In this document: positions 645-52,290 of the stretch, piece after piece
How positions within the stretch are numbered: position 1 is the stretch's first letter
How the letters are laid out: each line of letters opens with the position of its first letter
Assembly: GCF_024502345.1 (NCBI RefSeq)
Contig: NZ_JALDNN010000001.1
Origin: Escherichia coli
GTDB taxonomy: Bacteria > Pseudomonadota > Gammaproteobacteria > Enterobacterales > Enterobacteriaceae
DNA length: 64,000 nt
Direction: 5' to 3' (one strand)
Program-made: the position numbers and the translations under genes
Notes under the pieces: model-generated
Told to the model about the DNA's origin: nothing
The model's database searches: none
Seen by the model: the letters and a program-made list of their open reading frames with translations, nothing else

Positions 645-847
645 TTTGTATCCTGTTGTATGATTCTTAAGTACTGTTATTGGCCCGATTTTATCGCAAT
701 TTCATATGGATGACAGGCTTTGTATGTCATGCGTTGCACTGAGAGTTCGTTTGCCCGGTTGTGTAGCCAACACTCTTTCAGTCAGGCCAGTAGAAACGTT
801 GCGCTGACGATAAATACTGAAGCCCCAATACCATCGGGGCTGAACGT

Positions 848-2725: not shown

Positions 2726-2786
2726 ATGTTATATTAGCTGGCCTATTTTAATTTATTGCGTGTCGGTAGTACAGTCTTTGCACAAA

Positions 2787-3116
2787 CTAATTTATGCAAT
2801 GGAAAAGCTGACGGCTCGGTTTGTGTTTTTCATTCGGGTAGACTCGCATTGCGGATGCACAAAGTGATGAAACCTGTCTTGCTATATTTTTACCGAAGTT
2901 AACAAGAAGGCCGTGCTTTATTTTTTCACCCTCTGCCCTGATGCTGATGATAAAGCTGAACTGATATACGATTACCTCAATGAGGTCATTGCCAAATGTT
3001 ATAATGGCGGCGTTGTTTATTTCATGTTCATAATCCCTCAGGTCAGTGTTAAGTCTTGCTGTTGCATCTACAAGTGCGTATTCTTTATCGATAATCATAA
3101 CTTTCTCACTTATCAT
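2787..3116 (-). CDS. hypothetical protein (109 aa), paralog of 60147..60482
   Basis: ORF co-directional with and 40 bp downstream of the WYL regulator gene; conservative substitutions versus its paralog; no strong SD, and an overlapping + strand ORF exists, so strand assignment is tentative. Confidence 0.45.
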   Translation of the reverse strand: MISEKVMIIDKEYALVDATARLNTDLRDYEHEINNAAIITFGNDLIEVIVYQFSFIISIRAEGEKIKHGLLVNFGKNIARQVSSLCASAMRVYPNEKHKPSRQLFHCIN

Positions 3117-3156
3117 GTTAATGTGATTTAATCATCACTAATAATATGTTGTGATT

Positions 3157-3870
3157 TTAATTACGATTATTCGTCTGTTTACTCCCGTAATGCATTATCT
3201 TATGAATAATGTTCATGTGGGGTAAGGCTTCCATAAAGTCAGACTGTTCAATCAGCGAAATGAGTGTGTTATCGATCTCAAACGTTGTATCCGGTAATAC
3301 CTCAACCAGCCTGATTCGGGACAGGGAAATAACGAACACGCCCGATGACGTACATCCGGCAAGAAACCACTCCGCATGGCTGCAAAGCAGACGGTAGGGA
3401 TGAACGGTATGGCTGACGTTTTCGTCGGTTCTGATACGCACCTGGGTCTGGTTAAGTATGGCGAGCGTCAGTCTGCTGAAATCACCGAAAAGGGTGGGTT
3501 TCTGGCGCGGCTCCGGTAGCATAATCCTGTATGGCGAGGGACGTTCCCCGTCAAGCATCAGGCTCAGTAGTTTGGCATCCATCGCGGGTAACAGACGGTC
3601 AAGATGCAGCAACCTCGCCAGTATCTTCATATCCCGTTCCGTGCGGCGACGAAAGTAATGTGAGGCAAGCTGATACACGCCGTTGCTCTGTTCAATATCA
3701 AGGTAGGTCAGACGGACGTTGAAATCCCGTCGCAGCGTTCGCGTCGTCACTCCAAATTCTTCTGCCAGCGTCCCGATATGCAGCTTTTCACCCTGAAACA
3801 AACGGCTCAGGATGATGGAAAGGCGGGTTGCCAGTCTGTCATGTTCGTTTTCTTGTGTTATCAGCGTCAT
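3157..3870 (-). CDS. HTH-WYL domain transcriptional regulator (YfjR/BrxR-like architecture)
   Basis: 237 aa; N-terminal HTH (LAEEFGVTTRTLRRDF) and central W-x-L-type motif (HAEWFLAG); differs from paralog 60523..61236 at about 3 residues. Confidence 0.6.
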   Translation of the reverse strand: MTLITQENEHDRLATRLSIILSRLFQGEKLHIGTLAEEFGVTTRTLRRDFNVRLTYLDIEQSNGVYQLASHYFRRRTERDMKILARLLHLDRLLPAMDAKLLSLMLDGERPSPYRIMLPEPRQKPTLFGDFSRLTLAILNQTQVRIRTDENVSHTVHPYRLLCSHAEWFLAGCTSSGVFVISLSRIRLVEVLPDTTFEIDNTLISLIEQSDFMEALPHMNIIHKIMHYGSKQTNNRN

Positions 3871-3972
3871 ACATCATTTCCGAATTTAGCCGGGAAATGA
3901 TGCCAGCAGTAGCGGACAGGATTTGTCCGCCCTCTGAAGTTTTTTAAAGTCTGAATACCTTAAATGTAAGTG

Positions 3973-4288
3973 CTAAACGTCAGTATTCTCAGGTGAATAA
4001 AGATGCTTCTGGCGCATGTAGGCAATAAAAATGCAGGATGGTAGCGTCACCCGGTATGCGGGACCGGCTAAATCAATCAGCAGCCAGAGAGAACTGAGCA
4101 CCCAGCCCACGGGACCGGCAAAAGCGCCCATGGTACGCGTCAGCATGGCATTTCCTGCAACGGTCAGCCCTCTGCCTAACAGGGCTTTCGCCACACCATT
4201 TGTGACAACAAGTGCCATCTGATAGGCCGCAAACCCGGATGTTTTAATCCCCGCCTGGATTGCCATGGTCAGCAGCTCCGGCGTGGGA
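3973..4288 (-). pseudogene. 3' fragment of the 249-aa module protein (paralog of 61339..62088), truncated at a recombination junction
   Basis: Nucleotide homology to 61339..61660 ends abruptly near 4288; only the C-terminal ~100 codons remain. Confidence 0.6.
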
Positions 4289-4289
4289 T

Positions 4290-4562
4290 TGCTGTATCGC
4301 AGACGATACCGAGCAGGAGATACCAGCCATCATCAAGTGCGGTGACGTATTCCGGGTTAGCCAGTGCCACTGCCAGCAGCGGGTCTTCGGGGAGTGTGTC
4401 ATCGTGGTTGAGATGCCAGAGCAGGGTTCCCGTTTCGTTCCAGAAGGCGGTAAACAGGTCGATATCATCGACAGGGCCAAGGATTTCATTGCTGAGGGCC
4501 ACCAGTGCGGAGGCGGGCAGGTTGAGAAGGGGAAGACTGGTGGGAGTCGTGAGTTTAAACAT
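4290..4562 (-). pseudogene. 5' fragment of an unidentified gene fused to the junction at ~4288
   Basis: Start ATG at 4562 (MFKLTTPTSLPLLNLPASALVALSNEILGPVDD...); reading frame runs into the junction and ends in non-homologous sequence. Confidence 0.3.
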
Positions 4563-5081
4563 GATTATCTCCATAAGTAATTGATTCATATTGATAATAT
4601 GTTTTCAAATGACTTTTAGTTACATTTTTTTTACGTTGTTTGCTTATTTTGGATTATGTCCTTAAATTTAGTAGTGGGCTGGCGTTAAATCCCGTTTTTT
4701 TTCCGATTTGCAGCATTTTGTAAGCAAATTAGCATGAGCTGTTTTAACTGAAAATGAGAGAAGGCTTGCGCACAATTGCTATTGATTTTCTTACTTATTT
4801 TCTCAATCACAAAACGCCTTAAATAGTTCAAAAAACAATCAACACCCCATAATCGATATTATTTATGGGGAGAAACGACGTTTAAGCCTGAAAGTGGGGG
4901 AGTGGCACTTTCAGGAGATTAAGGAGGCAAACAGGCCTCTTTAACGCGTGTTTTTCTCACCAAAATGTCAGAGTCGGTGATTTGCACTTCAGTATTTCTG
5001 CCAATACTATTCGCTCCATGTGCTGGCCAGCATCTAACTCAATACCCTTAATCTGTATTAATTGAGCGAGATGTATGCATT

Positions 5082-6404
5082 ATGAAACCCGATAGTTCTT
5101 TAAACCAAATAACGCAGACAATGAAACGGAATGATGTTGATTCTGTGGATAGTCGCTTTTTTGAGTCAGCGCAAAACATGAAAACCAGCGTTGACGTTGA
5201 AGATTGCTGCGTTGAAGTGATGGTTCGACATCACAGCCCAAAGAATCAAAGAGAGGCATTCACTAAAGCTTTTTTTGATGAGTGTAAAATCCGTGCAGTA
5301 CAAACTGGCCGGACTATCGAAGCCAGCGATACAAAATGTACCGGGCTTAAGGCTATATTCCACTCATCCGGACGCATTAAGTTTATTGTCCGCAAAAGTA
5401 TTCGCGGAAAGAATGTTTACGTTGCAGTAGGAAGTTACCCTGAATTTTCCATTAATAACGCAAGGGAACATGCCTTTAAAATAATTCAGGAGCTTAAGGC
5501 TTCCGTTGAGACTTATGGTGAGCGTTTTCTTACGCACAGCAAAATAACGTTTAATGAACTTGTGGAACAGTATGTGAAATGCGTACTTAACACGGGCGTT
5601 AAGCGTTCAGCTAACACCGACCTTTCTAAGATCCGTAAATACCTGCGCCCTCTTCTCGGTGACAAAAAGCTGGCAGGTATGACGGAGGCAGATGTTCTGA
5701 GCTATCTACACGATCTCGATCTTAAGCCTGCCACACGCAACCGCCACCTGGCGCTCATTAAAGCGGTCTTTACCTGGGCTATACGCATGGGATACACCAG
5801 CCGCTCTCCGGCGCTTTATATCAAAGCGCTGCCTGAAGTGACGTCAGATCGCCGCGCCATGGATGACTCCCAGCTTCAGCGCTGGATGGAAGTCTGTGAG
5901 TGCTGGCGTAATGGTAAACCCGATCATGAAGCCCTTGCTCTGCTCATGTTCCTTGCCCTGACGGGGCTGCGTCTGGGGGAAACCCGTCACCTTCGTCTTG
6001 AAGATGTGGACTGGAGCCGCAAGGTTATCACCCTTCGCCATACCAAAAACGGCAAACTCCGCCGTGTACCGGTATGTGATAAGGCTTTCGTTCTTCTGAC
6101 AGAACAGCGTCAGCATCTGGGTGATGAAGGCTGGGTATTTCCGGGCAAGGGGACCGACAATCCGGTTTCTGAGCCGCGTCGCCTGCAAAAACGGCTTTGT
6201 GAGGCTGCGGGTATTCCACCGTTCACCATCCATGAGATGCGCCATACCTTTGCGACAAAACTCATTGAGAGCGGGGCCGACATTCACACCGTCAAAGACT
6301 TACTGGGCCACAGCACTATCAAAGTGACGGAGCTTTACTTGCACGCTTCCCCGGCGCGTTACCACGAAGCTGTTAACCGGGCGATGAATGTTTTTCCGGC
6401 CTAA
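5082..6404 (+). CDS. tyrosine-type site-specific recombinase (phage/island integrase)
   Basis: 440 aa; catalytic-domain motifs GLRLGETRHLRLEDVD, HEMRHTFAT and LLGHSTIKVTELYLH (R-H-R-Y signature). Confidence 0.8.
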   Translation: MKPDSSLNQITQTMKRNDVDSVDSRFFESAQNMKTSVDVEDCCVEVMVRHHSPKNQREAFTKAFFDECKIRAVQTGRTIEASDTKCTGLKAIFHSSGRIKFIVRKSIRGKNVYVAVGSYPEFSINNAREHAFKIIQELKASVETYGERFLTHSKITFNELVEQYVKCVLNTGVKRSANTDLSKIRKYLRPLLGDKKLAGMTEADVLSYLHDLDLKPATRNRHLALIKAVFTWAIRMGYTSRSPALYIKALPEVTSDRRAMDDSQLQRWMEVCECWRNGKPDHEALALLMFLALTGLRLGETRHLRLEDVDWSRKVITLRHTKNGKLRRVPVCDKAFVLLTEQRQHLGDEGWVFPGKGTDNPVSEPRRLQKRLCEAAGIPPFTIHEMRHTFATKLIESGADIHTVKDLLGHSTIKVTELYLHASPARYHEAVNRAMNVFPA

Positions 6405-6476
6405 ACAGAATTCCCCCTCAGGCAAGTGAGTTCTGCGCTTTACTGCCTGTGGTTCACATTCAAAAGGAACCTGTAA

Positions 6477-7172
6477 ATGAATAATAAATCAACACCATCC
6501 CCCTTGACTACAACGACCCCCGCTCGTTTTGCCTGCAGGAAATTAAATGCATTTCTGGCTCGTCGTGCTCTTCATATGAAGGTGGTAAGAAAAAACCTGA
6601 ACAAGGCTGCTGCAATCGACATCGATCTCGATGACATTTCTAAGTGCGGATGCCGTGATGGTCTGCCTGAAGGCTTTGTCAATACTGCAAAAGGGCTTTT
6701 CTATTATGAAGGAAAAAAATGGTACCAGTTAAGCTCGACCCCCATTCTCCCTGTCTACAGGCATTATTCTGATTGTAAAACGCGCAATATGGGCGTCGAG
6801 TTGATGACTATCAACCATGCTGGAGAGTTCGCCTGTGCTGATGTCTCATTAAGTGATGCAATGGTAAAACCTGATCACGTCATGGCTTCTCTGGCGGGCA
6901 AAGGTTTTGGTATCTCCCTGACGATAAAGTCTAAAGAGCTTCTGGTGCAATTCTTACAGGTGTGTATGAAGAAATCGCTGGAATTGCCTACTTATCTTGT
7001 CGCAGATTCGATGGGTTTTGTGCCTGGCAACAAAGCATTTCTTCACGGCAGTATACCTATCGCGCAGCACCTTTTGGAATTTGACTATTTGATTCCGGCT
7101 TCCCGTGTTCCACGAGGGCTTGTCGAGTCGGGAACGCTGGATGACTGGAAAACGATGGTACCTGTGAAATGA
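6477..7172 (+). CDS. hypothetical protein, possibly 3'-truncated island gene
   Basis: 231-aa ORF directly downstream of the integrase; its 3' end overlaps an opposite-strand ORF, suggesting a deletion junction. Confidence 0.35.
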   Translation: MNNKSTPSPLTTTTPARFACRKLNAFLARRALHMKVVRKNLNKAAAIDIDLDDISKCGCRDGLPEGFVNTAKGLFYYEGKKWYQLSSTPILPVYRHYSDCKTRNMGVELMTINHAGEFACADVSLSDAMVKPDHVMASLAGKGFGISLTIKSKELLVQFLQVCMKKSLELPTYLVADSMGFVPGNKAFLHGSIPIAQHLLEFDYLIPASRVPRGLVESGTLDDWKTMVPVK

Positions 7173-7468
7173 ATCCATTCTGATTCACCGAAGTCACTGG
7201 TCTGGTGTGACAGCGAGTACAGCCAGGCGTTATCCTTTTCCGTGATATGTGCGGTACTGCAGCGTATGCCGGCAAGGGTTGCAAACGGTGGTAGTGTGCA
7301 GGTTGACTGTTGGTCGGATTCCTCCACCACGCGGAGTGAATAACCGTTTTCAGCGACCTTGTTAATCAGTTCAGTGAGATTAACACCATCGACATCAACG
7401 ACAATTCGCCCCATGTTCAGTGCCTGCACATTAATGCTGTCGGCTTCCAACGTCAGGGCCAGTTTCAT
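7085..7468 (-). CDS. hypothetical small protein downstream of the yfjR-like gene; real extent uncertain
   Basis: ORF starting MKLALTLEADSINVQALNMGRIVVDVDG...; distal part overlaps 6477..7172 on the other strand and is probably not genuine. Confidence 0.3.
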   Translation of the reverse strand: MKLALTLEADSINVQALNMGRIVVDVDGVNLTELINKVAENGYSLRVVEESDQQSTCTLPPFATLAGIRCSTAHITEKDNAWLYSLSHQTSDFGESEWIHFTGTIVFQSSSVPDSTSPRGTREAGIK

Positions 7469-7577
7469 TGTTTCGCCTCCGGATGCTTCCCCTGGGTAAT
7501 GTTATTTACCGTTCTGTAGTTATCGCGGGTCATCAGGCCGGTTGCCCTGCGAGCCCGGAGAATATCAATACTGTTTA

Positions 7578-8228
7578 TTAACTGAGAGCGGGTAAGGACT
7601 GAATAAATCCCGGGTCTTCAACAAGACGACACAGACTGTCGTTACGCCGGAAAGTCTCCTGCAGGGGCTGAACCAGATGGATTTCATCCAGGGAGAATAC
7701 GGCGATATGTCCGTCGTGCTCTGCCACCAGATACCAGGCCTGCTGGTGGATAAGTAACCGGCAGGGAGCCAGCCGCTCACAGCGCTGCCCCTCGGCAATC
7801 AGAGTCACCCGCCTGCGCCCGGTAATGGCCTGAATCAGTCGCCAGAAAGACAATGCGCCTGATGGCGAAGGAGCCGGACTGGCGGGTGCGATTACGCAGG
7901 GAGACTCATCGCACATCAGCAGTGCGTTTACCAGACGACGGTCAAAGCCAGGGAAAAGACCGGCCATCCCGCTGCGGTGGGCAAAGATAAGCACGTCGGG
8001 CACCATCTGCGTCTCACTGCCCGCAGTGCGTAAGCGGTAATATCCGGACTGATACTCCAGGTCCAGATACATCAGCCGCTCACGAAAATCACGCCGCAGC
8101 GTGCGCACCGACACACCAAACTCAGCGGCAAGCTTACGCACACTCAGCGTTTCCCCTGCCACCAGACGGCTGATTATCAGTGACAGCCTGACAGCCAGCC
8201 GGTCATGGCGGCGTTCTGCCTGTGTCAT
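7578..8228 (-). CDS. yfjR: HTH-WYL regulator, YfjR-like (CP4-57-type island)
   Basis: 216 aa; HTH ([16 protein letters not shown]) plus AWYLVA motif; lies downstream of yfjP/yfjQ-like genes in the order recalled for E. coli CP4-57. Confidence 0.7.
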
Positions 8229-8444
8229 GAGACGTTCTCCGTGAAAGTTAACTGACTGAAAATGATGTGATTACTTTAAAGAGGGGGTCGGACAGGGTAT
8301 GGACACCACAGAAACTATTTTTCATTTCTGCAAAAGCCAGAGGCAGCGGGGGTTACAGGCCTTCCCTCGGTGAGTGAGGACCGTCAGCACGGTGCGATGC
8401 GGACAGGTGGTGTCCGATATTAACAAAGCAGCAACATTAAACGG

Positions 8445-9266
8445 TCACTGCAGTTGCGTGAGCAGGGCTTCCGCCATCACCCACAGTGCCCGGTTAAGTT
8501 TCACGTCCCCGTCGATACCGCGAACGGCACGGGTATGTGACCGTCCTCCTTTGGCATTACGGCCACTGAGCCCGCCCTTAATCAGGTTCTCCTGAATACG
8601 CTGGTACGTGGTCCACAGGTCATTGCTCTCATCCTGCCAGCGGCGAGGGGAGAGGATCTGCGATTCAGTCACCGGCTGGTGGTCTTCACCAAAGCGGTAT
8701 GTGAGGGCGGCTTTTGCCAGTGCCTGCTGTGCCGGGGGTGGCAACAGCAACGACTGCATGGCATCCCGTTTCTCCTCCACCCGGTCAAAAATCCCCAGCA
8801 CCTCATACGCGCCTTCAATCACCTGACTCACCACGTCCCCCTTGTGTGGCACCCGCACCTCGCCAAACGACTCACCGCAGACGAGCCCGTTCTGACAAAC
8901 CGCACGAAATAGTCCCGGCAACATCTGATACGAACTAGTGCCATCGTGGGAGTTGAGCAGGATAATTTCTGGTACCTGTTTACCGGTAATCTGCCCCTCA
9001 CGCCGCAGACGCAGCATATGCTTTGTATGTTCACGACGACCGGGGTCACGCACGCGGGTCTGACAGGCAAAGAATGGCTGGAAGCCTTCTCGCTGTAGGC
9101 TGTCGAGCAGGGAGATGGTAGGTATATAGGTATAACGCTCACTGCGGGATTCATGTTTGTCCTCGCTGAATACACTGGGCACCACGCGAAACAGCTCCTC
9201 ACGGGTTAACGGGCGGTCGCGACGGATAAGGTTTGCTGCGCCAAAGCGCGAAGCCAGACGGGTCAT
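8445..9266 (-). CDS. yfjQ: DUF932-family protein, YfjQ-like
   Basis: Start moved to internal ATG (MTRLASRFGAANLIRRDRPL...) which has a GAGGAG SD; sequence closely matches recalled YfjQ. Confidence 0.75.
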   Translation of the reverse strand: MTRLASRFGAANLIRRDRPLTREELFRVVPSVFSEDKHESRSERYTYIPTISLLDSLQREGFQPFFACQTRVRDPGRREHTKHMLRLRREGQITGKQVPEIILLNSHDGTSSYQMLPGLFRAVCQNGLVCGESFGEVRVPHKGDVVSQVIEGAYEVLGIFDRVEEKRDAMQSLLLPPPAQQALAKAALTYRFGEDHQPVTESQILSPRRWQDESNDLWTTYQRIQENLIKGGLSGRNAKGGRSHTRAVRGIDGDVKLNRALWVMAEALLTQLQ

Positions 9267-9357
9267 AAGCAGACTCCTCATAATGGGAAAACAAATAAAA
9301 GAAATCCCCGTCGCATCGGCGACAGGGTTAGGGAAATAACAGGGATGGGTTAAATAC

Positions 9358-10221
9358 TCAGAAGAAGAAATCCCAGACGGCACGGGCCACTGACACCACG
9401 GTGGTGCGCACGGCCTGAATGACGGCCCGCACCGGGGCGGGGATCAGGGGAAAGGCACTGATGCTATCGAGTACAGCACCGACGGTTTCACCAAAATCGC
9501 TACGCGCCTGTTCCCGGACTACCGTCGTGCGAAAGGAAGGCTGGAGTTGCGACACCACCGGGCTGGTGGCCTCACGTGGCAGGCACTTAATCATTCGCTC
9601 GGCCATCACCCGCAGTCCCCACTGAAGACGGACCGACACGGCACACACTGGATGTACGGGCTGGAACAGCTCATGCAGCAGGCAGATTTTGCGGCTGATA
9701 TTCTGCTTCTGCGCCGTGGACAACTGTCCCCCACCGCTGGTAGGTTCGGCCTTATCCGACTGGCTGATAACAAACAGCACCTTATGCCGGTATACCTCTC
9801 CAATCACCTGATGATAAAAATGTTCATCCACCGTCAGCGCCCGGTCATCGGCCTTAATCAGCCACAGTACCAGGTCGAGGCGAGGAAGCTGTTCGCGGTA
9901 CAGCGCAGCATACTCGGTATCGCGAGCACCACTTTCGCCCACGCCGGGCAGATCCATCAGCGTTATATAGCGGTCGCCAACCTGCAGGCGAAAGCGCAGT
10001 GGCTCACGTGTACAGGCCGCCACATCGCTGACCGGTGATACCTCACTGGCAAACAGGGCATTGCAGAGTGAGGATTTACCGGCACCGCTCTTACCCATAA
10101 TGCCGATCACTGGCTCGTAGCGGGTTAACTGATTTATCTGCTGCAATATACGTTCAGACACCCACTGTGGCAGACCAGCGAGCGATTGCTGAAACGGCTT
10201 CAATCCTTCAGAATTGTTCAT
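9358..10221 (-). CDS. yfjP: island-associated GTPase, YfjP/YeeP/YkfA family
   Basis: Walker A GKSGAGKSSLCNALF; start placed at MNNSEGLKPFQQSL with GAGGAG SD. Confidence 0.8.
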   Translation of the reverse strand: MNNSEGLKPFQQSLAGLPQWVSERILQQINQLTRYEPVIGIMGKSGAGKSSLCNALFASEVSPVSDVAACTREPLRFRLQVGDRYITLMDLPGVGESGARDTEYAALYREQLPRLDLVLWLIKADDRALTVDEHFYHQVIGEVYRHKVLFVISQSDKAEPTSGGGQLSTAQKQNISRKICLLHELFQPVHPVCAVSVRLQWGLRVMAERMIKCLPREATSPVVSQLQPSFRTTVVREQARSDFGETVGAVLDSISAFPLIPAPVRAVIQAVRTTVVSVARAVWDFFF

Positions 10222-10327
10222 TACTACTCCTCTGAAAAATAATACAAAAACGGCAGAATCGTGAGATTCCACCGTTAATCTGGTATGTTCAAAGGGATGA
10301 TATATATCTGAAAATTATTAACTTGAT

Positions 10328-11254
10328 CTACTTTTTGTCTTTTTTACGTGATGAAACAGCCTGCAGCCAAGCATGCTTCATTTTCTGAATAAAGAAATAT
10401 TTTTCTTCAACTCCAGTGTCCCAACTATCCATGCATGCAATGATCATCTGTATTCTCATTGCAGTGTTATATGGTTTTAAATAAAAGGGGATCATATTTT
10501 TATTTCTCAGATACTCCCAGCAATAGATAGCTTGCTTTTCATCTTTTTTATCTAGCCAGTCATAATCAGTAAGAAATGTATTATATTGCTCTAGCCATTT
10601 ATCATGCAACTTACGAAAATAGGAAATTTTCTGACTTAAACTTACAGGAGCTAAATCAATAAACCTCATCAAAGTACAAATGCGTTCTTGTTCGGATGTT
10701 GTATTCGGGCTGTAGTTGTCGGGATCTGCGCCAGATGTTAAATAAAATCTACGCGAGTATTTTTCAGGTATATCTCTATTTTTTTCTTTATTGCTAGGGG
10801 AGGTTCCCACCTGCATTTCGGCTTGTACTTCATCAAGTGAGAAATTTTTAATTTCATCAATGTTTATAAATTCAAAAAAGGATGCAGGAGTTGAGTTCGG
10901 GTTGTAAATATTATCTTGTGCAAAGATATTCACGCTCGAGGAGGTTTCAGGACTGATTCTGTTGTTATATATATACATTAAGGCAAACCACGATCCTCTA
11001 TCAGAACCTTTGAAACAATCGAACTTCTCTTTGTCAATGATTTTGTAATGGAACTGTTTTTTCAAGTAAGTACGCGCACTTTGTATTGCTTCATTATTGA
11101 ATAGGAATTTAGTGTTCAATATATGATTAATGAGTTTTTGAAATTCCTCAGGCGTGTCGAAATTACTCGCCTGCTTAATGTAATCTTCGTTGTAATACAG
11201 ACTCAGAACGTAAAGGGAAAAGAACTCCTCTCTCACTTCGTCATACCTAAGCAT
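10328..11254 (-). CDS. hypothetical protein (308 aa), AT-rich orphan gene
   Basis: Long uninterrupted ORF in visibly AT-rich DNA immediately upstream of the yfjP-like GTPase; no motif recognised. Confidence 0.5.
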   Translation of the reverse strand: MLRYDEVREEFFSLYVLSLYYNEDYIKQASNFDTPEEFQKLINHILNTKFLFNNEAIQSARTYLKKQFHYKIIDKEKFDCFKGSDRGSWFALMYIYNNRISPETSSSVNIFAQDNIYNPNSTPASFFEFINIDEIKNFSLDEVQAEMQVGTSPSNKEKNRDIPEKYSRRFYLTSGADPDNYSPNTTSEQERICTLMRFIDLAPVSLSQKISYFRKLHDKWLEQYNTFLTDYDWLDKKDEKQAIYCWEYLRNKNMIPFYLKPYNTAMRIQMIIACMDSWDTGVEEKYFFIQKMKHAWLQAVSSRKKDKK

Positions 11255-11572
11255 GTACCCTCCAGTGTGATATCACATCTGTCCGATGCTTTCAAAAGTA
11301 TAAATGAACCATGATGATTTGGCATCTGCAAGGTGACTGTTGACTGGTTTTTTGCTGATTTTTTAATGATAAAGTAGTGATTACTAACTGATTAGTAAGT
11401 GATTAATGGCTGGTTGCCTCCTGTGATTTTTCTGCCTCTGGTAAATTGGGGGAGAGTACTGATCAACTCACCACTCTGAATAATTTTCATGATTGCACTC
11501 TACAAAGTTTCGACATCCGTCAAATTGTAACGGTCAGAGAACAGCGTTACACGAGGTTTTCCGTATCTATGC

Positions 11573-12629
11573 GGCTTTGTTGAATAAATCGAACTTTTGC
11601 TGAGTTGAAGGATCAGATCACGTATCTTCCCGACAACGCAGACCGTTCCGTGGCAAAGCAAAAGTTCAAAATCACCAACTGGCCCACCTACAATAAAGCC
11701 CTCATCAACCGTGGCTCCATAACTTTCTGGCTGGATGATGAAGCTATTCAGGCCTGGTATGAGTCAGCAACACCTTCTTCACGAGGCAGACCTCAGCGCT
11801 ATTCTGACCTTGCCATCACGACTGTGCTGGTCATTAAACGCGTATTCAGGCTGACCCTGCGCGCTGCGCAGGGCTTTATTGATTCCATTTTTTCTCTGAT
11901 GAACGTTCCGCTACGCTGCCCGGATTACAGCTGTGTCAGCAGGCGGGCAAAGTCGGTTAATGTCAGTTTCAAAACGCCCACCCGGGGTGAAATCGCACAC
12001 CTGGTAATTGATTCCACCGGGCTGAAGGTCTTCGGTGAAGGCGAGTGGAAAGTCAAAAAGCATGGCCAGGAACGCCGCCGTATCTGGCGTAAGCTGCATC
12101 TCGCCGTTGACAGTAAAACACATGAAATCATCTGCGCTGACCTGTCGCTGAACAACGTTACGGACTCAGAGGCCTTCCCCGGGTTAATCCGGCAAACCCA
12201 CCGGAAAATCAGGTCAGCCGCCGCCGATGGCGCTTACGATACCCGGCTATGTCACGATGAACTGCGGCGTAAGAAAATCAGCGCGCTTATCCCTCCCCGA
12301 AAAGGTGCGGGTTACTGGCCCGGTGAATATGCAGACCGTAACCGTGCAGTGGCTAATCAGCGAATGACCGGGAGTAATGCGCGGTGGAAATGGACAACAG
12401 ATTACAACCGTCGCTCGATAGCGGAAACGGCGATGTACCGGGTAAAACAGCTGTTCGGGGGTTCACTGACACTGCGTGACTACGATGGTCAGGTTGCAGA
12501 GGCTATGGCCCTGGTACGAGCGCTGAACAAAATGACGAAAGCAGGTATGCCTGAAAGCGTGCGTATTGCCTGAAAACACAACCCGCTACGGGGGAGACTT
12601 ACCCGAAATCTGATTTATTCAACAAAGCC
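11573..12629 (+). mobile_element. IS903-group insertion sequence (IS5 family), 1057 bp
   Basis: Terminal inverted repeats GGCTTTGTTGAATAAATCG at 11573 and its complement ending at 12629; internal sequence matches recalled IS903; flanking 9-mers differ (no target-site duplication). Confidence 0.9.
11605..12573 (+). CDS. IS903 transposase
   Basis: 322-codon ORF filling the element; DDE transposase of the IS903/IS102 type; ORF track start is a TTG codon. Confidence 0.9.
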   Translation: MKDQITYLPDNADRSVAKQKFKITNWPTYNKALINRGSITFWLDDEAIQAWYESATPSSRGRPQRYSDLAITTVLVIKRVFRLTLRAAQGFIDSIFSLMNVPLRCPDYSCVSRRAKSVNVSFKTPTRGEIAHLVIDSTGLKVFGEGEWKVKKHGQERRRIWRKLHLAVDSKTHEIICADLSLNNVTDSEAFPGLIRQTHRKIRSAAADGAYDTRLCHDELRRKKISALIPPRKGAGYWPGEYADRNRAVANQRMTGSNARWKWTTDYNRRSIAETAMYRVKQLFGGSLTLRDYDGQVAEAMALVRALNKMTKAGMPESVRIA

Positions 12630-13024
12630 ACTGTGTTTATCAAATTCCATGCCCTTTTTGCTGCTTAATTTTAAATGACACTCTGATCATGCACCGTGAT
12701 TGAAATAAGTTATAGCCACCCCTTAATCATTTTTTTCAGACGACATTAACTTCGGAGTAAATAATTTAACACAATGAAATATCAAACCGCATCTGGCCTG
12801 AATGTTGAGTATTAATACGTGACGGATTGTTAATATATATCAGTACATAAACCCCAATATTCCAGTAATACACACCTACACAATACACACCAAGCAATTT
12901 AGTCAGCATCACCCAACTAACATCCAACACAAACTCAATAAGCCAGATTTGATACCACCTAATTACCTCAACCATCGCGGGTAAGGTTCCGTCCTGCCCG
13001 ATATTCAGATCACAGGAATCTATT

Positions 13025-13636
13025 ATGCTTAATGATATTTATCTTGACCAACGTCATGCCCCATTCAATACAACGTATTTGCAACGGATGCTGGGTGTAA
13101 TTGATAACGCTATAGCACAACACCCAAGGACAATGGCTGTCCGTGTCGATCTACGTCTGCCTGATGACAACTGTAATAGGAATAGTGGTCTGATATCCCG
13201 TTTCATTGAATCGCTTAATGCAAAAATCGATGCTCGGTACCGAAATAAAATAAAGAATGGCATCAGGAGCTACCCATGCCAGTTGCGTTACGCCTGGGTT
13301 CGGGAAGTGGGAGAAATAAACGAGAAGTCCCATTACCACATGGTACTTTTCGTGAACAAAGACACATTCAATGGACTTGGGAGCTATGGAGAAGGGGGAA
13401 CGGGATTAGCCAGCCTGATACGTGAAGCCTGGCTGAGCGCTTTGCAACTAGGCCCTTACCCCGAATACCGAACGTTGGTCCACATCCCGGACAACCCATT
13501 GTATTACCTGGACGTCAATAATTTAGACTACAAAACGGTTTACGATAAACTCACTTTCAGGCTGAGTTATTTTGCGAAAGAGCGCACCAAGTCATACAGC
13601 CGAGATGAACGCTCGTTTGGCTGCAGTCAGTCCTGA
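13025..13636 (+). CDS. YagK/YfjJ-family (inovirus Gp2-like) island protein
   Basis: 203 aa starting MLNDIYLDQRHAPFNTTYLQRM...; family typical of CP4-type islands (recalled similarity). Confidence 0.6.
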   Translation: MLNDIYLDQRHAPFNTTYLQRMLGVIDNAIAQHPRTMAVRVDLRLPDDNCNRNSGLISRFIESLNAKIDARYRNKIKNGIRSYPCQLRYAWVREVGEINEKSHYHMVLFVNKDTFNGLGSYGEGGTGLASLIREAWLSALQLGPYPEYRTLVHIPDNPLYYLDVNNLDYKTVYDKLTFRLSYFAKERTKSYSRDERSFGCSQS

Positions 13637-13941
13637 GGCAAAACAAACTAAGTCTATAAAGATTTTTTCAGCCTGGCTCTAATCGACTGAATCTCAGCAT
13701 ACTCCGCTTTTGAAGCCTTGACACGTCAGTTGTTCTTTCACCTCTGAGTGGCTACTCGCGACTGCCTGCAGGAGACTGATTATGTTATTGACCGCAAAAT
13801 CCATTAACTGACTTTTCGACTTAATCTCCTTAAGTTATGTGAGAAATTTGCCGATATGAAAACATGATCCTCCAGTCGCTACTGACATGCCCTGTCAGTA
13901 GCGACTGGTAATCTCAAGGAAAAATTACAAGGAGAACGCGC

Positions 13942-14170
13942 ATGAGCGGGCATGAGGTAATGGTACAAAGAATAACCGCTATTATTGCAGAACTTTACCA
14001 GTACGGTTTTGTATCACGTAAGAAGATGATGGACGAATTCAACATCAGTGAGCGTACTTTGTATCGTGATCTTAATCGTCTGGGCGACAGAATCGTCCCC
14101 GATGGTGATGGTATTTACAGGCTGGCTCCCGCTTACGCTAAACCTCAGGCTCTAAAAGAACAACAAAATC
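13942..14170 (+). pseudogene. N-terminal HTH fragment of a YfjR-like regulator, truncated at the junction with appC
   Basis: Frame encodes ...MMDEFNISERTLYRDLNRL... then runs out of frame into appC sequence at ~14170. Confidence 0.4.
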
Positions 14171-15133
14171 TCGGCCATGTTTATTATGGCGATCAGCGCC
14201 TGGTATTTACTGCGCGGACGGGAGCGCGATGTCGCATTACGCTCGTTTGCCATCGGTTCCGTCTTCGGTACTCTGGCGATTATTGGCACGCTGCAACTCG
14301 GAGACAGTTCTGCGTATGAAGTCGCGCAAGTACAACCGGTAAAACTGGCGGCGATGGAAGGGGAGTGGCAAACGGAACCTGCACCTGCACCGTTCCATGT
14401 GGTTGCCTGGCCGGAACAGGATCAAGAGCGTAACGCCTTTGCCATCAAAATTCCCGCGCTGCTAGGGATCCTCGCCACTCACTCATTAGATAAACCCGTG
14501 CCGGGTCTGAAGAATTTGATGGCTGAAACCTACCCACGCTTGCAACGCGGACGTATGGCCTGGCTGTTAATGCAGGAAATATCGCAAGGCAATCGTGAGC
14601 CGCATGTGTTGCAGGCATTCCGGGAACTGGAAGGTGACCTGGGCTACGGCATGTTGCTCTCCCGCTATGCGCCGGATATGAATCATGTCACAGCCGCACA
14701 GTACCAGGCGGCGATGCGTGGTGCAATACCTCAGGTTGCGCCGGTATTCTGGAGTTTCCGCATCATGGTGGGCTGTGGTTCCCTGCTGCTACTGGTGATG
14801 CTGATTGCGCTTGTCCAGACGCTGCGTGGCAAAATCGACCAGCATCGCTGGGTGCTGAAAATGGCGCTCTGGAGTTTGCCGTTGCCGTGGATTGCGATTG
14901 AAGCCGGGTGGTTTATGACCGAGTTTGGTCGTCAGCCGTGGGCGATACAGGACATCTTACCGACATACTCCGCGCACTCCGCCTTAACCACAGGACAACT
15001 GGCTTTCTCACTGATCATGATCGTAGGGCTTTACACCCTGTTCTTAATCGCCGAAGTCTACCTGATGCAGAAATATGCCCGTCTGGGGCCGAGCGCGATG
15101 CAGAGTGAACAACCGACGCAGCAACAGGGGTAA
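14170..15133 (+). pseudogene. appC: cytochrome bd-II ubiquinol oxidase subunit I, 5'-truncated (C-terminal ~320 codons only)
   Basis: Protein from ...AMFIMAISAWYLLRGRER to ...SEQPTQQQG matches the C-terminal part of AppC; upstream sequence is island DNA. Confidence 0.85.
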
Positions 15134-15144
15134 AGGAGAAAATC

Positions 15145-16281
15145 ATGTTTGATTATGAAACATTGCGCTTCATCTGGTGGCTGCTGATTGGCGTGATCCT
15201 GGTGGTCTTTATGATCTCCGACGGATTTGACATGGGGATCGGCTGTTTGCTGCCGCTGGTGGCGCGTAATGATGATGAACGCCGGATAGTGATTAATAGC
15301 GTTGGTGCGCACTGGGAAGGCAATCAGGTCTGGTTGATCCTCGCAGGTGGGGCATTATTTGCCGCCTGGCCCAGAGTGTATGCAGCGGCGTTTTCCGGCT
15401 TTTATGTGGCGATGATCCTGGTGCTGTGCTCGCTGTTCTTCCGCCCGCTGGCCTTTGATTATCGCGGAAAAATCGCCGATGCACGCTGGCGTAAAATGTG
15501 GGATGCCGGTCTGGTCATCGGCAGTCTGGTGCCGCCGGTAGTCTTCGGTATCGCCTTCGGCAACTTGTTGCTCGGCGTGCCGTTTGCCTTCACACCGCAA
15601 TTACGCGTGGAGTATCTCGGCAGCTTCTGGCAACTGCTGACGCCATTCCCTTTATTGTGCGGATTGCTCAGCCTTGGGATGGTGATTTTGCAAGGTGGCG
15701 TCTGGTTACAACTGAAAACTGTTGGTGTGATTCATCTGCGTTCACAGCTGGCGACTAAACGCGCTGCACTGTTGGTGATGCTGTGCTTTTTGCTGGCGGG
15801 TTACTGGCTGTGGGTCGGTATTGATGGCTTTGTACTGCTCGCCCAGGATGCTAACGGTCCTTCCAATCCGTTAATGAAACTGGTGGCAGTGCTACCTGGT
15901 GCCTGGATGAATAATTTTGTCGAGTCGCCCGTTTTGTGGATCTTCCCGCTACTGGGGTTCTTCTGCCCATTGCTGACGGTGATGGCGATTTATCGTGGTC
16001 GCCCGGGTTGGGGATTTTTGATGGCATCATTGATGCAATTTGGCGTGATTTTCACGGCAGGCATCACGCTGTTCCCCTTTGTCATGCCGTCAAGCGTGAG
16101 TCCAATCTCCAGCCTGACGTTGTGGGACAGCACTTCCAGTCAGCTGACGCTGAGTATTATGTTGGTAATCGTGCTGATATTTTTGCCCATTGTGTTGCTC
16201 TACACTCTCTGGAGCTACTACAAAATGTGGGGGCGCATGACGACAGAAACTCTCCGCCGTAACGAAAACGAGCTGTACTAA
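15145..16281 (+). CDS. appB: cytochrome bd-II ubiquinol oxidase subunit II
   Basis: 378 aa, [21 protein letters not shown]...; SD AAGGAG upstream. Confidence 0.9.
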
Positions 16282-16293
16282 GGAGCAGGAACA

Positions 16294-16386
16294 ATGTGGT
16301 ATTTACTTTGGTTCGTCGGCATTTTGTTGATGTGTTCGCTCTCCACCCTTGTGTTGGTATGGCTGGACCCGCGATTGAAAAGTTAA
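16294..16386 (+). CDS. appX: cytochrome bd-II accessory small membrane protein
   Basis: 30-codon ORF MWYLLWFVGILLMCSLSTLVLVWLDPRLKS between appB and appA with SD AGGAGCAGGA. Confidence 0.7.
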   Translation: MWYLLWFVGILLMCSLSTLVLVWLDPRLKS

Positions 16387-16465
16387 CGAACGTAAGTCTG
16401 ATGCGGCGCATTAGCGTCGTATCAGGCAATCAATAATGTCGGATATGAAAAGCGGAAACATATCG

Positions 16466-17764
16466 ATGAAAGCGATCTTGATCCCATTTTTATCTCTTCT
16501 GATTCCGTTAACCCCGCAATCTGCATTCGCTCAGAGTGAGCCGGAGCTGAAGCTGGAAAGTGTGGTGATTGTCAGTCGTCATGGTGTGCGTGCCCCAACC
16601 AAGGCCACGCAACTGATGCAGGATGTCACCCCAGACGCATGGCCAACCTGGCCGGTAAAACTGGGTTGGCTGACACCGCGCGGTGGTGAGCTAATCGCTT
16701 ATCTCGGACATTACCAACGCCAGCGTCTGGTAGCCGACGGATTGCTGACGAAAAAGGGCTGCCCGCAGCCTGGTCAGGTCGCGATTATTGCTGATGTCGA
16801 CGAGCGTACCCGTAAAACAGGCGAAGCCTTCGCCGCCGGGCTGGCACCTGACTGTGCAATAACCGTACATACCCAGGCAGATACGTCCAGTCCCGATCCG
16901 TTATTTAATCCTCTAAAAACTGGCGTTTGCCAACTGGATAACGCGAACGTGACTGACGCGATCCTCAGCAGGGCTGGAGGGTCAATTGCTGACTTTACCG
17001 GGCATCGGCAAACGGCGTTTCGCGAACTGGAACGGGTGCTTAATTTTCCGCAATCAAACTTGTGCCTTAACCGTGAGAAACAGGACGAAAGCTGTTCATT
17101 AACGCAGGCATTACCATCGGAACTCAAGGTGAGCGCCGACAATGTCTCATTAACCGGTGCGGTAAGCCTCGCATCAATGCTGACGGAGATATTTCTCCTG
17201 CAACAGGCACAGGGAATGCCGGAGCCGGGGTGGGGAAGGATCACTGATTCACACCAGTGGAACACGTTGCTAAGTTTGCATAACGCGCAATTTTATTTAC
17301 TACAACGCACGCCGGAGGTTGCCCGCAGCCGCGCCACCCCGTTGTTGGATTTGATCATGACAGCGTTGACGCCCCATCCACCGCAAAAACAGGCGTATGG
17401 TGTGATATTACCCACTTCAGTGCTGTTTATCGCCGGACACGATACTAATCTGGCAAATCTCGGCGGCGCACTGGAGCTCAACTGGACGCTTCCAGGTCAG
17501 CCGGATAACACGCCGCCAGGTGGTGAACTGGTGTTTGAACGCTGGCGTCGGCTAAGCGATAACAGCCAGTGGATTCAGGTTTCGCTGGTCTTCCAGACTT
17601 TACAGCAGATGCGTGATAAAACGCCGCTGTCATTAAATACGCCGCCCGGAGAGGTGAAACTGACCCTGGCAGGATGTGAAGAGCGAAATGCGCAGGGCAT
17701 GTGTTCGTTGGCCGGTTTTACGCAAATCGTGAATGAAGCACGCATACCGGCGTGCAGTTTGTAA
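16466..17764 (+). CDS. appA: periplasmic acid phosphatase/phytase AppA
   Basis: Signal peptide MKAILIPFLSLLIPLTPQSAFA, histidine acid phosphatase motif RHGVRAP; start placed at ATG 16466 rather than ORF-track start. Confidence 0.9.
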   Translation: MKAILIPFLSLLIPLTPQSAFAQSEPELKLESVVIVSRHGVRAPTKATQLMQDVTPDAWPTWPVKLGWLTPRGGELIAYLGHYQRQRLVADGLLTKKGCPQPGQVAIIADVDERTRKTGEAFAAGLAPDCAITVHTQADTSSPDPLFNPLKTGVCQLDNANVTDAILSRAGGSIADFTGHRQTAFRELERVLNFPQSNLCLNREKQDESCSLTQALPSELKVSADNVSLTGAVSLASMLTEIFLLQQAQGMPEPGWGRITDSHQWNTLLSLHNAQFYLLQRTPEVARSRATPLLDLIMTALTPHPPQKQAYGVILPTSVLFIAGHDTNLANLGGALELNWTLPGQPDNTPPGGELVFERWRRLSDNSQWIQVSLVFQTLQQMRDKTPLSLNTPPGEVKLTLAGCEERNAQGMCSLAGFTQIVNEARIPACSL

Positions 17765-17774
17765 TGCATAAAAA

Positions 17775-17800
17775 AGAGCATTCAGCTACCTGAATGCTCT
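17775..17800. terminator. bidirectional stem-loop between convergent appA and etk
   Basis: Perfect 11-bp inverted repeat AGAGCATTCAG / CTGAATGCTCT with 4-nt loop, preceded by an A-run. Confidence 0.5.
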
Positions 17801-17883
17801 GAGGCTGATGACAAACGAAGAACTGTCTAATGCGTAGACCGGAAAAGGCGTTCACGCCGCATCCGGTCACTTTACCTTCAGTT

Positions 17884-18578
17884 TTACTCTTTCTCGGAGT
17901 AACTATAACCGTAATAGTTATAGCCGTAACTGTAAGCGGTGCTGGCGCGTTTAATCACACCATTGAGGATAGCGCCTTTAATATTGACGCCTGCCTGTTC
18001 CAGACGCTGCATTGACAAGCTCACCTCTTTGGCGGTGTTCAGGCCAAAACGCGCAACCAGCAGGCTGGTGCCGACAGAGCGCCCCACGACCGCAGCATCG
18101 CTCACCGCCAGCATCGGCGGCGTATCGACAATCACCAGATCGTAATGGTCGTTCGCCCATTCCAGTAATTGACGCATCCGATCGCGCATCAGCAGTTCAG
18201 ACGGGTTAGGTGGCATCTGACCGCGAGTAATCACATCAAAGCCTCCTTTGCCAAAATGCTGGATCACTTTGTTGAGCTCATCTTTACCTGCCAGATATTC
18301 CGACAAGCCATGTGCATTACTCACGGTAAACAGGTTATGCGAATAACCATGGCGTAAGTCGGCATCAATAAATAACACTTTTTGATCGGACTGGGCGATC
18401 ACCGCTGCCAGAGTTGAACTGACAAATGTTTTACCACTGTCTGGCGTCGCACCGGTGATCATCAGAATGTTATTCTCAGTCTCCATCATAGCGAAATGCA
18501 GACTGGTTCGTAGCGCACGTACGGCTTCCACAGCAGAATCCGCCGGGTTATCCACCGCCAGGAAGGGGATATTTTTAG
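17884..18578 (-). pseudogene. etk: tyrosine-protein kinase Etk, 3' fragment truncated by IS5
   Basis: Encodes the C-terminal BY-kinase domain with Walker A GKTFVSSTLAAV and Tyr-rich tail YSYGYNYYGYSYSEKE; coding sequence abuts the IS5 end at 18579. Confidence 0.8.
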
Positions 18579-19773
<1,195 letters not shown>

Positions 19774-23337: not shown

Positions 23338-25035
23338 TCATGCCCAGTTTTTATGTTTGCTGGTTTTACCAATACCTGGGTTCATAGTGTTGGTCGGATC
23401 ATTTTCCTGATAAAAACGTGCCAAATTTTCCGGCGCTTTATACAGATGGCCGACATTGTGTTCCGCCGGATATTGCGCTCCGCGTTGGCGCAGTAATTCC
23501 AGCATCTGTTCTTTTAACGCGTGGGCATCTACGCCTTTTTTAACGATATAATCCTGATGGAATACATGGCACATAAAATGGCCGTAATAGAGTTTATGCA
23601 CCAACTGACTGTCAATTTCCGCCGGTAAATGCTCATACCATTCGGTATCATTGCGGCGTAATGCAATATCCAGCGCGAGAATATCCTCAACCTCGTCAGA
23701 ATGAACGGCCTGATAACGAATGGCAGCACCCGCGGCGGCAAAACGATGCAGAAACGCCTTACTGCCCTCTTCCGCGGTACAGGTAAAGAACGCGCCCTCG
23801 GCCGATTTAAAATAGTCCGTTAACCATGCCTGGGCTTCGGCCACACCCTCACCGGACATTTTCAACATCAGATGGTGTTCATAGTTATCGCGCCAGGTCT
23901 TCATCCGCGCCGGGAGATGGCTCGGGAACAGATGGCTAAAAGCCTGCATCGCGCGGTCGGTAAAGTGCGGGCGAAAGATCTTCACCTTCTCAAGTATGGC
24001 CTCGGTACGCCCCTTCAGGTTGAAGAAGAACGGCATTTTGTCCGTGCCAAGTTTGTCGATCATCAGGAAGGTATCTTTGCTGTATTTCTCTGCAATATCA
24101 TAGATATCGCGGTGCATATACTCCCCAGCAACCGGCAGGTTTGTAAAATTCGCCAGGATGTGGCGGCGAATCTCAGTCAGGACATCAGTCTGATTGGTAC
24201 CGATATAAAAGACCTGCTGGTTCTTCTCGGCTTCAAAGGTATCCAGACGTACGGCAAACACCGCTAACTTGCCCGCACAGCCAGAGGATTCAAACAGGCG
24301 ATCCGGGTCAGCGTTGTAACGTGCTGGCGTGTCGGCATTGATGTCCCGCACGCGGCTAACATAGTCGTGATCGTGCGCGTGACGCCCGTCATGGTTGACG
24401 AGCACGGCTTCAATCGCATTGTTATCCAGCCGGGCAAGGATTTGCTCTGGCGTCTGACCTAGCTCAATGCCGAGGTGATTGACCAGCTGCAAGCGTCCCT
24501 GTTCATCAATACGGGCAAACAGCGACATCTCGGTATAAGCCGGGCCACGCTGGACCAGAGAACCGCCGGAGTTATTACAGATACCGCCGATAACCGACGC
24601 GCCGATGCACGAAGAGCCAATCACCGAATGCGGCTCACGGCCAAACGGCTTCAGCGCCTTTTCCAGCGAATACAGCGTGGTGCCCGGATAAGCCAGCACC
24701 TGCTTACCCTCATCCAGCACATGCAGACTGTCCAGCCGCAGCGTGCTGATAATGACGATCTCGCGGTCGTAATCATTACCATTGGGCGTCGAACCCTCAG
24801 TCAGGCCAGTGTTCGACGCCTGCATCAGGATTATTTTATCGGCCTCAACGCAGGCGCTAAGGACTTTCCAGAGTTCAAGCAAAGAGCCGGGGATAACCAC
24901 CGCCAGAGCATCACCCTGACCCGAGCGAAAACCCTTACGGTAACGCGCAGTTTTTGACGGTTCGGTGAGGATATGAGCAGGGCCAACCAATTGGGTAAGA
25001 GTTGTCAAAAAGGTCTTATTATCAGTATGTTTCAT
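23338..25035 (-). CDS. dld: FAD-dependent D-lactate dehydrogenase
   Basis: Start placed at MKHTDNKTFL...; long stretches match recalled E. coli Dld (ARYRKGFRSGQGDALAV, GGICNNSGGSLVQRGPAYTE). Confidence 0.85.
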   Translation of the reverse strand: MKHTDNKTFLTTLTQLVGPAHILTEPSKTARYRKGFRSGQGDALAVVIPGSLLELWKVLSACVEADKIILMQASNTGLTEGSTPNGNDYDREIVIISTLRLDSLHVLDEGKQVLAYPGTTLYSLEKALKPFGREPHSVIGSSCIGASVIGGICNNSGGSLVQRGPAYTEMSLFARIDEQGRLQLVNHLGIELGQTPEQILARLDNNAIEAVLVNHDGRHAHDHDYVSRVRDINADTPARYNADPDRLFESSGCAGKLAVFAVRLDTFEAEKNQQVFYIGTNQTDVLTEIRRHILANFTNLPVAGEYMHRDIYDIAEKYSKDTFLMIDKLGTDKMPFFFNLKGRTEAILEKVKIFRPHFTDRAMQAFSHLFPSHLPARMKTWRDNYEHHLMLKMSGEGVAEAQAWLTDYFKSAEGAFFTCTAEEGSKAFLHRFAAAGAAIRYQAVHSDEVEDILALDIALRRNDTEWYEHLPAEIDSQLVHKLYYGHFMCHVFHQDYIVKKGVDAHALKEQMLELLRQRGAQYPAEHNVGHLYKAPENLARFYQENDPTNTMNPGIGKTSKHKNWA

Positions 25036-25470
25036 GGAGGGCGGCTCTCCGCTCCTTATATCAGGGCCAGTGAAAATGGCCATAAGTTCATTTGTACGAC
25101 AAAACAGAATATTCCCTCAATCAATATCCACATGCAATACCCCATTTTATTTCTTTCGGCACCGCTCACATTTTTTAATGAAATTACCACTACCACATAA
25201 TTCATACTCCGTTCTTTTACTGGATGCCAAAACGCTTATTTCATTTATTGCAAAGACCATTTCATACCTATTAATGATTAACTCTAATGGGTATTATTAT
25301 ATTTAGTGGTTATTCATGTTTAATAAAAAAATAACATTATTTATACAATTATTAACCTTTGTAACTTTATTTCACTGAAGCGATTCAGTTTGCATTTTTT
25401 ATTTTATTATTAAGGTAGCCTCCTTCCCCCTAAATATAGTTAAGTCTAAAAAAGTAAATCGGGAATTGTA

Positions 25471-31223: not shown

Positions 31224-31296
31224 CTGATGATCCTTTTACGACATGAGTAGGATGGCGTTCTTCAAATTATAGAAAACGTCTGATTTAAGGCGAAAA

Positions 31297-31322
31297 AAAA
31301 GGCGGCACATCGCCGCCTGGTG
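31297..31322 (-). terminator. putative rho-independent terminator downstream of the AI-2E transporter gene
   Basis: GC stem AGGCGGC...GCCGCCT followed by a T-run on the minus strand. Confidence 0.4.
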
Positions 31323-31342
31323 TGGTCTATATCGTCACATCC

Positions 31343-52241: not shown

Positions 52242-52290
52242 TGGTGCCCGGACTCGGAATCGAACCAAGGACACGGGGATTTTCAATCCC
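52242..52290 (-). repeat. 3'-terminal 49 nt of tRNA-Phe (island attachment-site repeat), not a complete tRNA gene
   Basis: Minus strand reads GGGATTGAAAATCCCCGTGTCCTTGGTTCGATTCCGAGTCCGGGCACCA, matching the anticodon-loop-to-CCA part of recalled E. coli tRNA-Phe; match stops abruptly at 52290. Confidence 0.75.

Follow-up and report, generated by a model that had tools for sequence, protein, structure and literature searches.

Gene content of the locus

The window, i.e., the whole stretch of 64,000 nucleotides (64 kb) that was analysed, contains a truncated regulator gene that runs into a truncated appC gene, followed by appB, cbdX and appA and by a remnant of etk that ends at an insertion sequence. 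The regulator remnant (13942..14172, plus strand) was delimited by alignment and by its domains. It comprises the first 77 codons (231 nt) and retains the HTH only. It matches an intact protein of 292 aa from E. coli Z226-5 (record L002, 8303-9181) at every one of the residues 1-77 (77/77), and in this intact protein the Pfam domains HTH_DeoR/HTH_11 (10-47), WYL (123-174) and WCX (209-279) were recognised. The window copy lacks WYL and WCX, and hence is not an HTH-WYL-WCX regulator. The description of the fragment as YfjR-like in the original prediction agrees with the domain architecture, but the identity to the true YfjR orthologue of the island is only 26%.

Directly upstream of the regulator fragment lies a gene of the inovirus Gp2/YagK-YfjJ family (13025..13636, plus strand; PF11726), and Gp2-family annotations are also given to this gene in G3/10, Z226-5 and ECONIH5. 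Between the two genes, 34 nt before the start codon of the regulator, the sequence contains a perfect 16-bp inverted repeat with a 5-nt spacer (13872..13908). The repeat folds at -33.2 kcal/mol (z = -5.7 versus shuffles) and is not followed by a T-run. From its sequence and position, it is possibly an operator of the regulator.

The appC remnant (14173..15133, plus strand) was identified by BLAST and alignment as nt 585-1545 of the gene, encoding residues 196-514. Intact appC spans 1545 nt (record L003, 7417-8961), and the match with the window starts at 8001 of this record. Hence, the window copy has lost its promoter region and 584 nt (194 codons plus 2 nt) of coding sequence, while 318 of the 319 surviving codons encode the same residue as in AppC 196-514. 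The stump is annotated as a partial pseudogene in RefSeq relatives. Alignment to an intact appC had been suggested to define the breakpoint, and the start of the match at nt 585 bears out the claim that about 195 codons and the promoter are lacking.

Downstream of appC we found appB (15145..16281; 378 aa) and appA (16466..17764; 432 aa; acid phosphatase/phytase) in the list of open reading frames, the latter also by annotation, and between them cbdX, also known as appX (16294..16386; 30 aa), by translation and annotation. All three lie on the plus strand with open reading frames, as predicted, and their counterparts are annotated as intact in a 99.98%-identical copy in G3/10. The AppB encoded by the island of G3/10 is the same protein as that encoded by its native copy (WP_000460803.1).

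The etk remnant (17884..18578, minus strand) encodes the C-terminal part only. It is colinear with native etk up to 18578, where it is cut by an ISKpn26-like IS5 of 1195 bp (18579..19773, minus strand) with inverted repeats and a transposase reading frame at 18725-19705. The remnant is annotated as a partial pseudogene in the relatives G3/10 and ECONIH5, and other records with the same junction contain etk in full length downstream of it. The IS5 is flanked by TTAG and CAAG, without a 4-bp target duplication; this mismatch implies that the element marks a recombination joint rather than a simple insertion. To the right of IS5 are RelE/HTH genes in ECONIH5 and in the first copy of G3/10, and a gntP fragment in the window. 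A second ISKpn26-like IS5 copy is located at 42148-43350.

Coding capacity of the app genes

The residues of AppC include the heme d ligand His19, Glu99 and the heme b558 ligand His186 (PMC8585947). All three fall within the part of AppC that is missing from the window. A functional AppC has about 514 aa with His19 for heme d, His186 and Met393 for b558, and Glu445 for b595, and full-length AppC matches chain A of the bd-II oxidase structure 7OSE over residues 1-514 (PDB 7OSE/7OY2). In comparison with this native cytochrome bd-II subunit, the window copy is without a promoter and without residues 1-195. Because His19, Glu99 and His186 are lost, the stump cannot make a working subunit I, and the fragment is presumably inert and unable to bind heme d or b558. 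The prediction that appC is a pseudogene is correct for the copy in the window. It very probably does not extend to the strain's own bd-II oxidase gene, since the genomes with this junction that could be scored hold an extra copy (see below).

The genes appCBA form one transcription unit with a regulated promoter before appC (PMC4222967). In the window, island DNA lies upstream of 14173, such that the remnant has neither its own promoter nor its start codon. We scanned positions 13600-17900 for promoters and obtained a single site, located inside appB, which is fewer than in shuffled sequences; at the threshold of the scan, neither the regulator gene nor appA was preceded by a sigma-70-like site. 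An appA-proximal promoter has reportedly been described, in connection with work by Atlung and Brondsted in 1994 on cyx-appA regulation. Without their AppC partner, the island-borne appB and cbdX would contribute nothing. The product of appA is a periplasmic enzyme that works by itself, and thus appA, provided that it is transcribed, would be the sole member of the block with a possible contribution.

The junction between the regulator gene and appC

Three-way alignment and the end points of BLAST matches both place the break between positions 14172 and 14173. With window positions 13640-14700 as query, the island half matched at query positions 1-533 and the appC half at 534-1061. The window reads AAAATCTC up to the break and GGCCATGTTT after it. 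The intact island gene continues past the break as AAAATCTC ATCAATG, and intact appC reads ACCGG GGCCATGTTT. According to the three-way alignment, the two partners share zero bases at the break, i.e., there is no microhomology. Since 13942 and 14174 differ in phase, the fusion is out of frame. The prediction that an HTH gene fragment runs out of frame into appC at about 14170 is confirmed.

The fusion creates a chimeric open reading frame of 125 aa (13942..14319, plus strand; open reading frame list and alignment), with 77 aa from the regulator and 48 aa of out-of-frame appC. Such a reading frame is possible only with the junction and is therefore a junction-specific marker. Its exact sequence occurred in at least 146 contigs, with source names E. 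coli, Citrobacter freundii, Enterobacter hormaechei/cloacae and E. roggenkampii. BLAST retrieved the identical junction from 16 of the 5426 complete E. coli genomes. A 37-mer over the joint had no match in the GTDB representatives, which include one genome per species and hence a single E. coli genome. The full junction was also absent from the plasmid collection, where most matches were mislabelled chromosome pieces with intact appC and the informative match was an IncR plasmid with an IS26-trimmed derivative (see below).

Comparison with the native hya-app locus

The native gene order is yccA, tRNA-Ser, hyaABCDEF, appC, appB, cbdX, appA, etk, etp, gfc. The block in the window is colinear with this order, starting at nt 585 of appC. 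In contrast, the native neighbours tRNA-Ser, hya and etp-gfc are missing around it. A tRNA scan of the whole 64-kb window detected no complete tRNA and no tRNA-Ser, hya was not found in the window, and etp-gfc was absent as well. The window thus has neither the upstream side (yccA, tRNA-Ser, hya) nor the complete downstream side (etk-etp-gfc) of a native hya-app locus. The tRNA-Ser gene next to hyaA is probably serT, of which K-12 has a single, essential copy. In about 14% of the complete E. coli genomes (~767 of 5425), O157:H7 included, DNA is inserted between this tRNA-Ser gene and yccA, about 44 bp beyond the 3' end of the former (1258/1259 of record L003).

We counted app copies with a query restricted to app (appC' to appA). 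All 13 carriers of the junction that were listed among the matches had app in two places, or three in the case of G3/10, whereas every listed non-carrier had it in one. The carriers A30, CAVP773 and OY754834 were not among the app-only matches listed, and their second copy rests on the mixed junction query. In G3/10, the native locus is located at 3.119-3.139 Mb with a complete 1545-nt appC, 2.3 Mb from the junction copies at 0.814 and 0.853 Mb. This native locus includes tRNA-Ser, hyaA-F, appB, cbdX, appA, full-length etk, etp and gfc, and its hyaB is split by IS30. Hence, relative to the native locus, the island block is an additional copy beside full-length appC in the carriers tested. More generally, the appC promoter and the 5' 584 nt of appC are kept in 5417 of the 5426 genomes. 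The whole window was not matched by any complete E. coli genome in the collection, and for positions 1-12700 no such genome reached a coverage of 80%. Judging from the relatives, the genome from which the window was taken, of which 64 kb is visible, probably keeps a native appCBA as well.

The island copy and the native copy of G3/10 differ at 67 of 4406 nt (98.37% identity), whereas identities of 99.1-99.5% were obtained between the island copy and the app genes of other E. coli. This difference indicates that the island app is a foreign E. coli allele acquired by transfer, and neither the resident genes nor a duplicate formed locally. The picture implied by the original prediction, in which the island lies beside the resident app operon and a deletion destroyed bd-II, is at odds with the non-native flanks, the extra copy in the carriers and the foreign allele.

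The host island

Upstream of the junction, the BLAST map revealed remains of a CP4-6/CP4-57-type backbone (7159..11572, minus strand), with a CbtA/DUF5983 end, a YfjR-type WYL gene, a DUF932 gene, a YfjP-type GTPase gene and a hypothetical gene. This stretch is shorter in the window than in G3/10. Backbone genes of such islands (GTPase, DUF932, YfjR, antirestriction, RadC, CbeA/CbtA) are present in relatives and partly deleted in the window. The island resembles CP4-6 (at thrW) and CP4-57 (at ssrA) of K-12 in its YfjP/YkfA-type GTPase, DUF932, YfjR-type WYL regulator, YpjK and YafY/YfjS, and furthermore in YkfB, antirestriction, RadC/JAB, the CbeA/CbtA toxin-antitoxin pair, AlpA and YagK/YfjJ. 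PGAP gives several island genes the CP4-6 names yafW, ykfB, ykfI and yafX, and the junction-bearing island of ECONIH5 lies directly at thrW, as CP4-6 does.

At the other end, a gene for a P4-type integrase of 420 aa (50782-52044, minus strand; NF007246, E = 6e-73, below the curated cut-off) lies beside the 3' 49 nt of a tRNA-Phe gene (52243-52291, minus strand), as expected for an island of the CP4-6/CP4-57 type. A complete tRNA-Phe occupies this position in G3/10. The island of that strain, which is 99.96% identical over 17 kb, takes up the interval from pitB to pheV. The integrase gene is open in the window and frameshifted in G3/10. A literature search on the G3/10 island returned nothing relevant. 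A search for the 40-nt tRNA-Phe segment with up to 3 mismatches found one copy in the window and hence no second att repeat that would mark the left end of the island.

In contrast to CP4-6 and CP4-57, the island has a tRNA-Phe integrase end in G3/10 and the window, and core-gene fragments of Enterobacter-like and Citrobacter-like origin. A further difference is a second WYL regulator gene, the one encoding 292 aa, into which a piece of the core chromosome of E. coli (appC'-appA-etk...) has been joined. This regulator gene is presumably missing from K-12.

Several other rearrangements were seen in the window. An IS903-type element of 1057 bp (11573-12629) takes the place of 347 bp with an AlpA-family HTH gene in G3/10. 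A further tyrosine recombinase is located at 5082-6404. The two ends of the window (1-7164 and 52291-64000) consist of related pieces of type I restriction/DUF262/DUF3944 islands with 93-97% identity. We considered a tandem duplication or a circular join of the window ends, which is ruled out by this divergence of the copies. Since no resident core gene is visible in the 64 kb, several islands are nested or in tandem.

The junction in other genomes

The same junction occurs in different surroundings and with different degrees of erosion. In ECONIH5, it is part of a CP4-6-like island at thrW (thrW, ykfI ... GTPase, AlpA, Gp2), and the sequence from the regulator fragment and appC' runs to an etk' that is cut by IS5, like in the window. 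In A30, a strain from a horse, the junction lies close to thrW and the app block continues through full etk, etp and gfcE to IS1. In the island of CAVP773, it extends through gfcEDCB to ~70 bp before gfcA, which amounts to 11.5 kb of native sequence, and ends at an IS903-like element. Two further islands (L016 and L017) have neither the IS5 cut nor an internal deletion.

A deletion of ~0.37 kb that fuses appC' to appB is common to A30, CAVP773, L013 and L021, in various contexts. The same deletion end points are found on pEclE4-2, a conjugative IncR plasmid of Enterobacter hormaechei, in which IS26 has cut in 38 nt past the junction and thereby trimmed it. On this plasmid, appB-cbdX-appA-etk-etp-gfcE is situated beside polysaccharide genes (wecB, wecC, polymerase, glycosyltransferase). 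In the island of record L018, a Tn7-like element is located within appB. The second junction copy of G3/10 (record L004, 13656-21286; 0.814-0.821 Mb) is part of the pheV island, ~39 kb from the first, and is bounded by IS1 and IS5. In this copy, appB and appA are frameshifted with an IS30 between them.

A comparison of the carriers shows up to 1.5% divergence in the island DNA around the junction, for which a single origin of the junction needs later recombination or considerable age.

Origin of the junction

We conclude that positions 13942-18578 of the window most probably represent cargo of a mobile mosaic island, in the form of a module that has since decayed, rather than the resident app locus (probability about 0.85). 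In the mechanism that we propose, ~11.5 kb of E. coli core chromosome would have been joined once to codon 77 of the HTH-WYL gene of a CP4-6/CP4-57-type island. The captured piece would have begun at appC nt 585 and included appB, cbdX, appA, etk, etp and gfcEDCB, with its far end ~70 bp short of gfcA, and the capture joint would be a product of blunt, non-homologous recombination. The joint would then have spread with the island to thrW and pheV sites, strains, genera and a plasmid, with different erosion in each place; in the window, IS5 would have removed all beyond the 3' third of etk. The identical break point suggests that the capture happened only once.

Other explanations fit these data less well. 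That the junction is an artefact of assembly or sequencing, a chimeric join of two repeats, has a negligible probability: only the general IS richness of the region counts for it, while the two partners share no repeat at the joint. Moreover, 16 independent complete genomes, obtained by different laboratories from different hosts, and many draft contigs have exactly the same joint, which also removes the earlier caveat that the breakpoint might be a sequencing error. We consider it very unlikely, although less so than an artefact, that the island once lay beside the resident hya-app locus and that one deletion took away the end of the island together with hyaABCDEF and the 5' portion of appC, so that the strain has neither bd-II nor hydrogenase 1. 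Such a deletion would account for the single clean joint at which the coding sequences of both genes break off, and for a window without a second appC. In addition, the tRNA-Ser by hyaA is a used integration site, with DNA between tRNA-Ser and yccA in the ~767 of 5425 genomes mentioned above. The single occupant of this site that we inspected, however, is a lambdoid prophage, another type of island, and the deletion would also have removed that tRNA-Ser gene.

Furthermore, carriers of the identical joint retain the native locus with a complete appC, and the island copy is a foreign allele with 98.4% identity to the host's own. The block has island and IS DNA on both flanks and is contained in an island that ends at a tRNA-Phe fragment, and the same joint recurs at thrW, at pheV and in other genera. 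All of this argues against a deletion in the lineage of the window. In some ancestor, the joint may nevertheless have resulted from a deletion across island and chromosome. As a precursor, we found no island of this type beside hya-app, and in none of the 5426 genomes did an intact regulator gene adjoin app or a candidate anchoring IS, i.e., no pre-capture state was found.

For the cargo module, we propose illegitimate insertion as a route, in which incoming E. coli DNA would have been integrated by one IS crossover and one illegitimate end. This route fits the extra-copy status of the block and its foreign allele. The right end of the captured piece is at an IS in every version, which is IS903-like, IS5, IS1 or IS26. 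Mobile elements capture chromosomal DNA by imprecise excision (specialised transduction) or by IS-anchored, homology-facilitated illegitimate recombination. The island block is like such captures in having one blunt non-homologous end and another end at an IS. It is unlike them in that the joint has no microhomology and the precursor was not found. An IS5 upstream of gfcA, present in some native loci, was considered as the end of the captured piece and rejected, because the piece in CAVP773 ends at an IS903-like element at a different position.

In Z226-5, three hypothetical genes of 846, 1446 and 2523 nt lie downstream of the intact regulator gene in the same orientation (L002, 9216-14065), and these three genes occur in only 5 or 6 of the 5426 genomes. 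The 3' part of the intact regulator gene was found in 3 of the 5426 genomes and, with the three downstream genes, in 3 to 6 genomes, in no case beside app. This trio could be an accessory module, perhaps for defence, that was controlled by the WYL regulator and lost on joining with appC.

Possible benefit and implications

The module might be kept because it is useful, either by expressing a second appA from the regulator promoter or through the export genes etk-etp-gfcE, with the appC stump as a by-product. The intact appB, cbdX and appA in the window and most carriers, the position of the block beside polysaccharide synthesis genes on pEclE4-2, and the wide occurrence of the module in at least 146 contigs are all in line with a use. 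Against it, the module decays freely, as illustrated by IS5 in etk and by the frameshifts and IS30 in the second G3/10 copy, and other records have the 0.37-kb deletion or a Tn7-like insertion in appB. The promoter scan described above likewise gave no sigma-70-like site from which the regulator fragment or appA would be transcribed. On balance, we regard a retained benefit as improbable. Somewhat less doubtful, but still speculative, is a broader view of the cargo module, in which the junction is the birth mark of selected cargo in an island family that serially collects core fragments from several genera. If true, other strains, Citrobacter, Enterobacter and a conjugative IncR plasmid would have received from the island the phytase gene of E. 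coli and its genes for the export of group-4 capsule.

The block is almost certainly a spare copy. Mosaic islands do capture pieces of chromosome, and this one is a commonplace trace of horizontal transfer that leaves our knowledge of bd oxidases and island biology unchanged. It does call for caution in annotation: from the window alone, the strain would be scored as negative for cytochrome bd-II and, implicitly, for hydrogenase 1, which is very likely wrong. The joint can serve as a single-event marker for one lineage of mosaic island across tRNA sites, strains, genera and a plasmid, and it presents a clear case of a mobile element that carries a piece of the core chromosome of a former host.

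Core genes from other genera

Core genes were also present elsewhere in the island. Positions 29449-45555, notably 32792-42316, contain mmuPM, tauABCD, an OlsF-like acyltransferase gene and hemB in a K-12-like order. The island tauABCD-hemB is only ~82% identical to native E. coli tau-hemB. The proteins TauD, TauA, HemB and MmuM of the island cluster with those of Enterobacter, Leclercia and Lelliottia, and its Dld (dld at 23338-25083) clusters with Citrobacter. These core fragments from foreign genera imply that the element repeatedly collects chromosomal pieces. The full tau-hemB stretch was found in 17 of the 5426 genomes, which overlap only partially with the 16 carriers of the junction.
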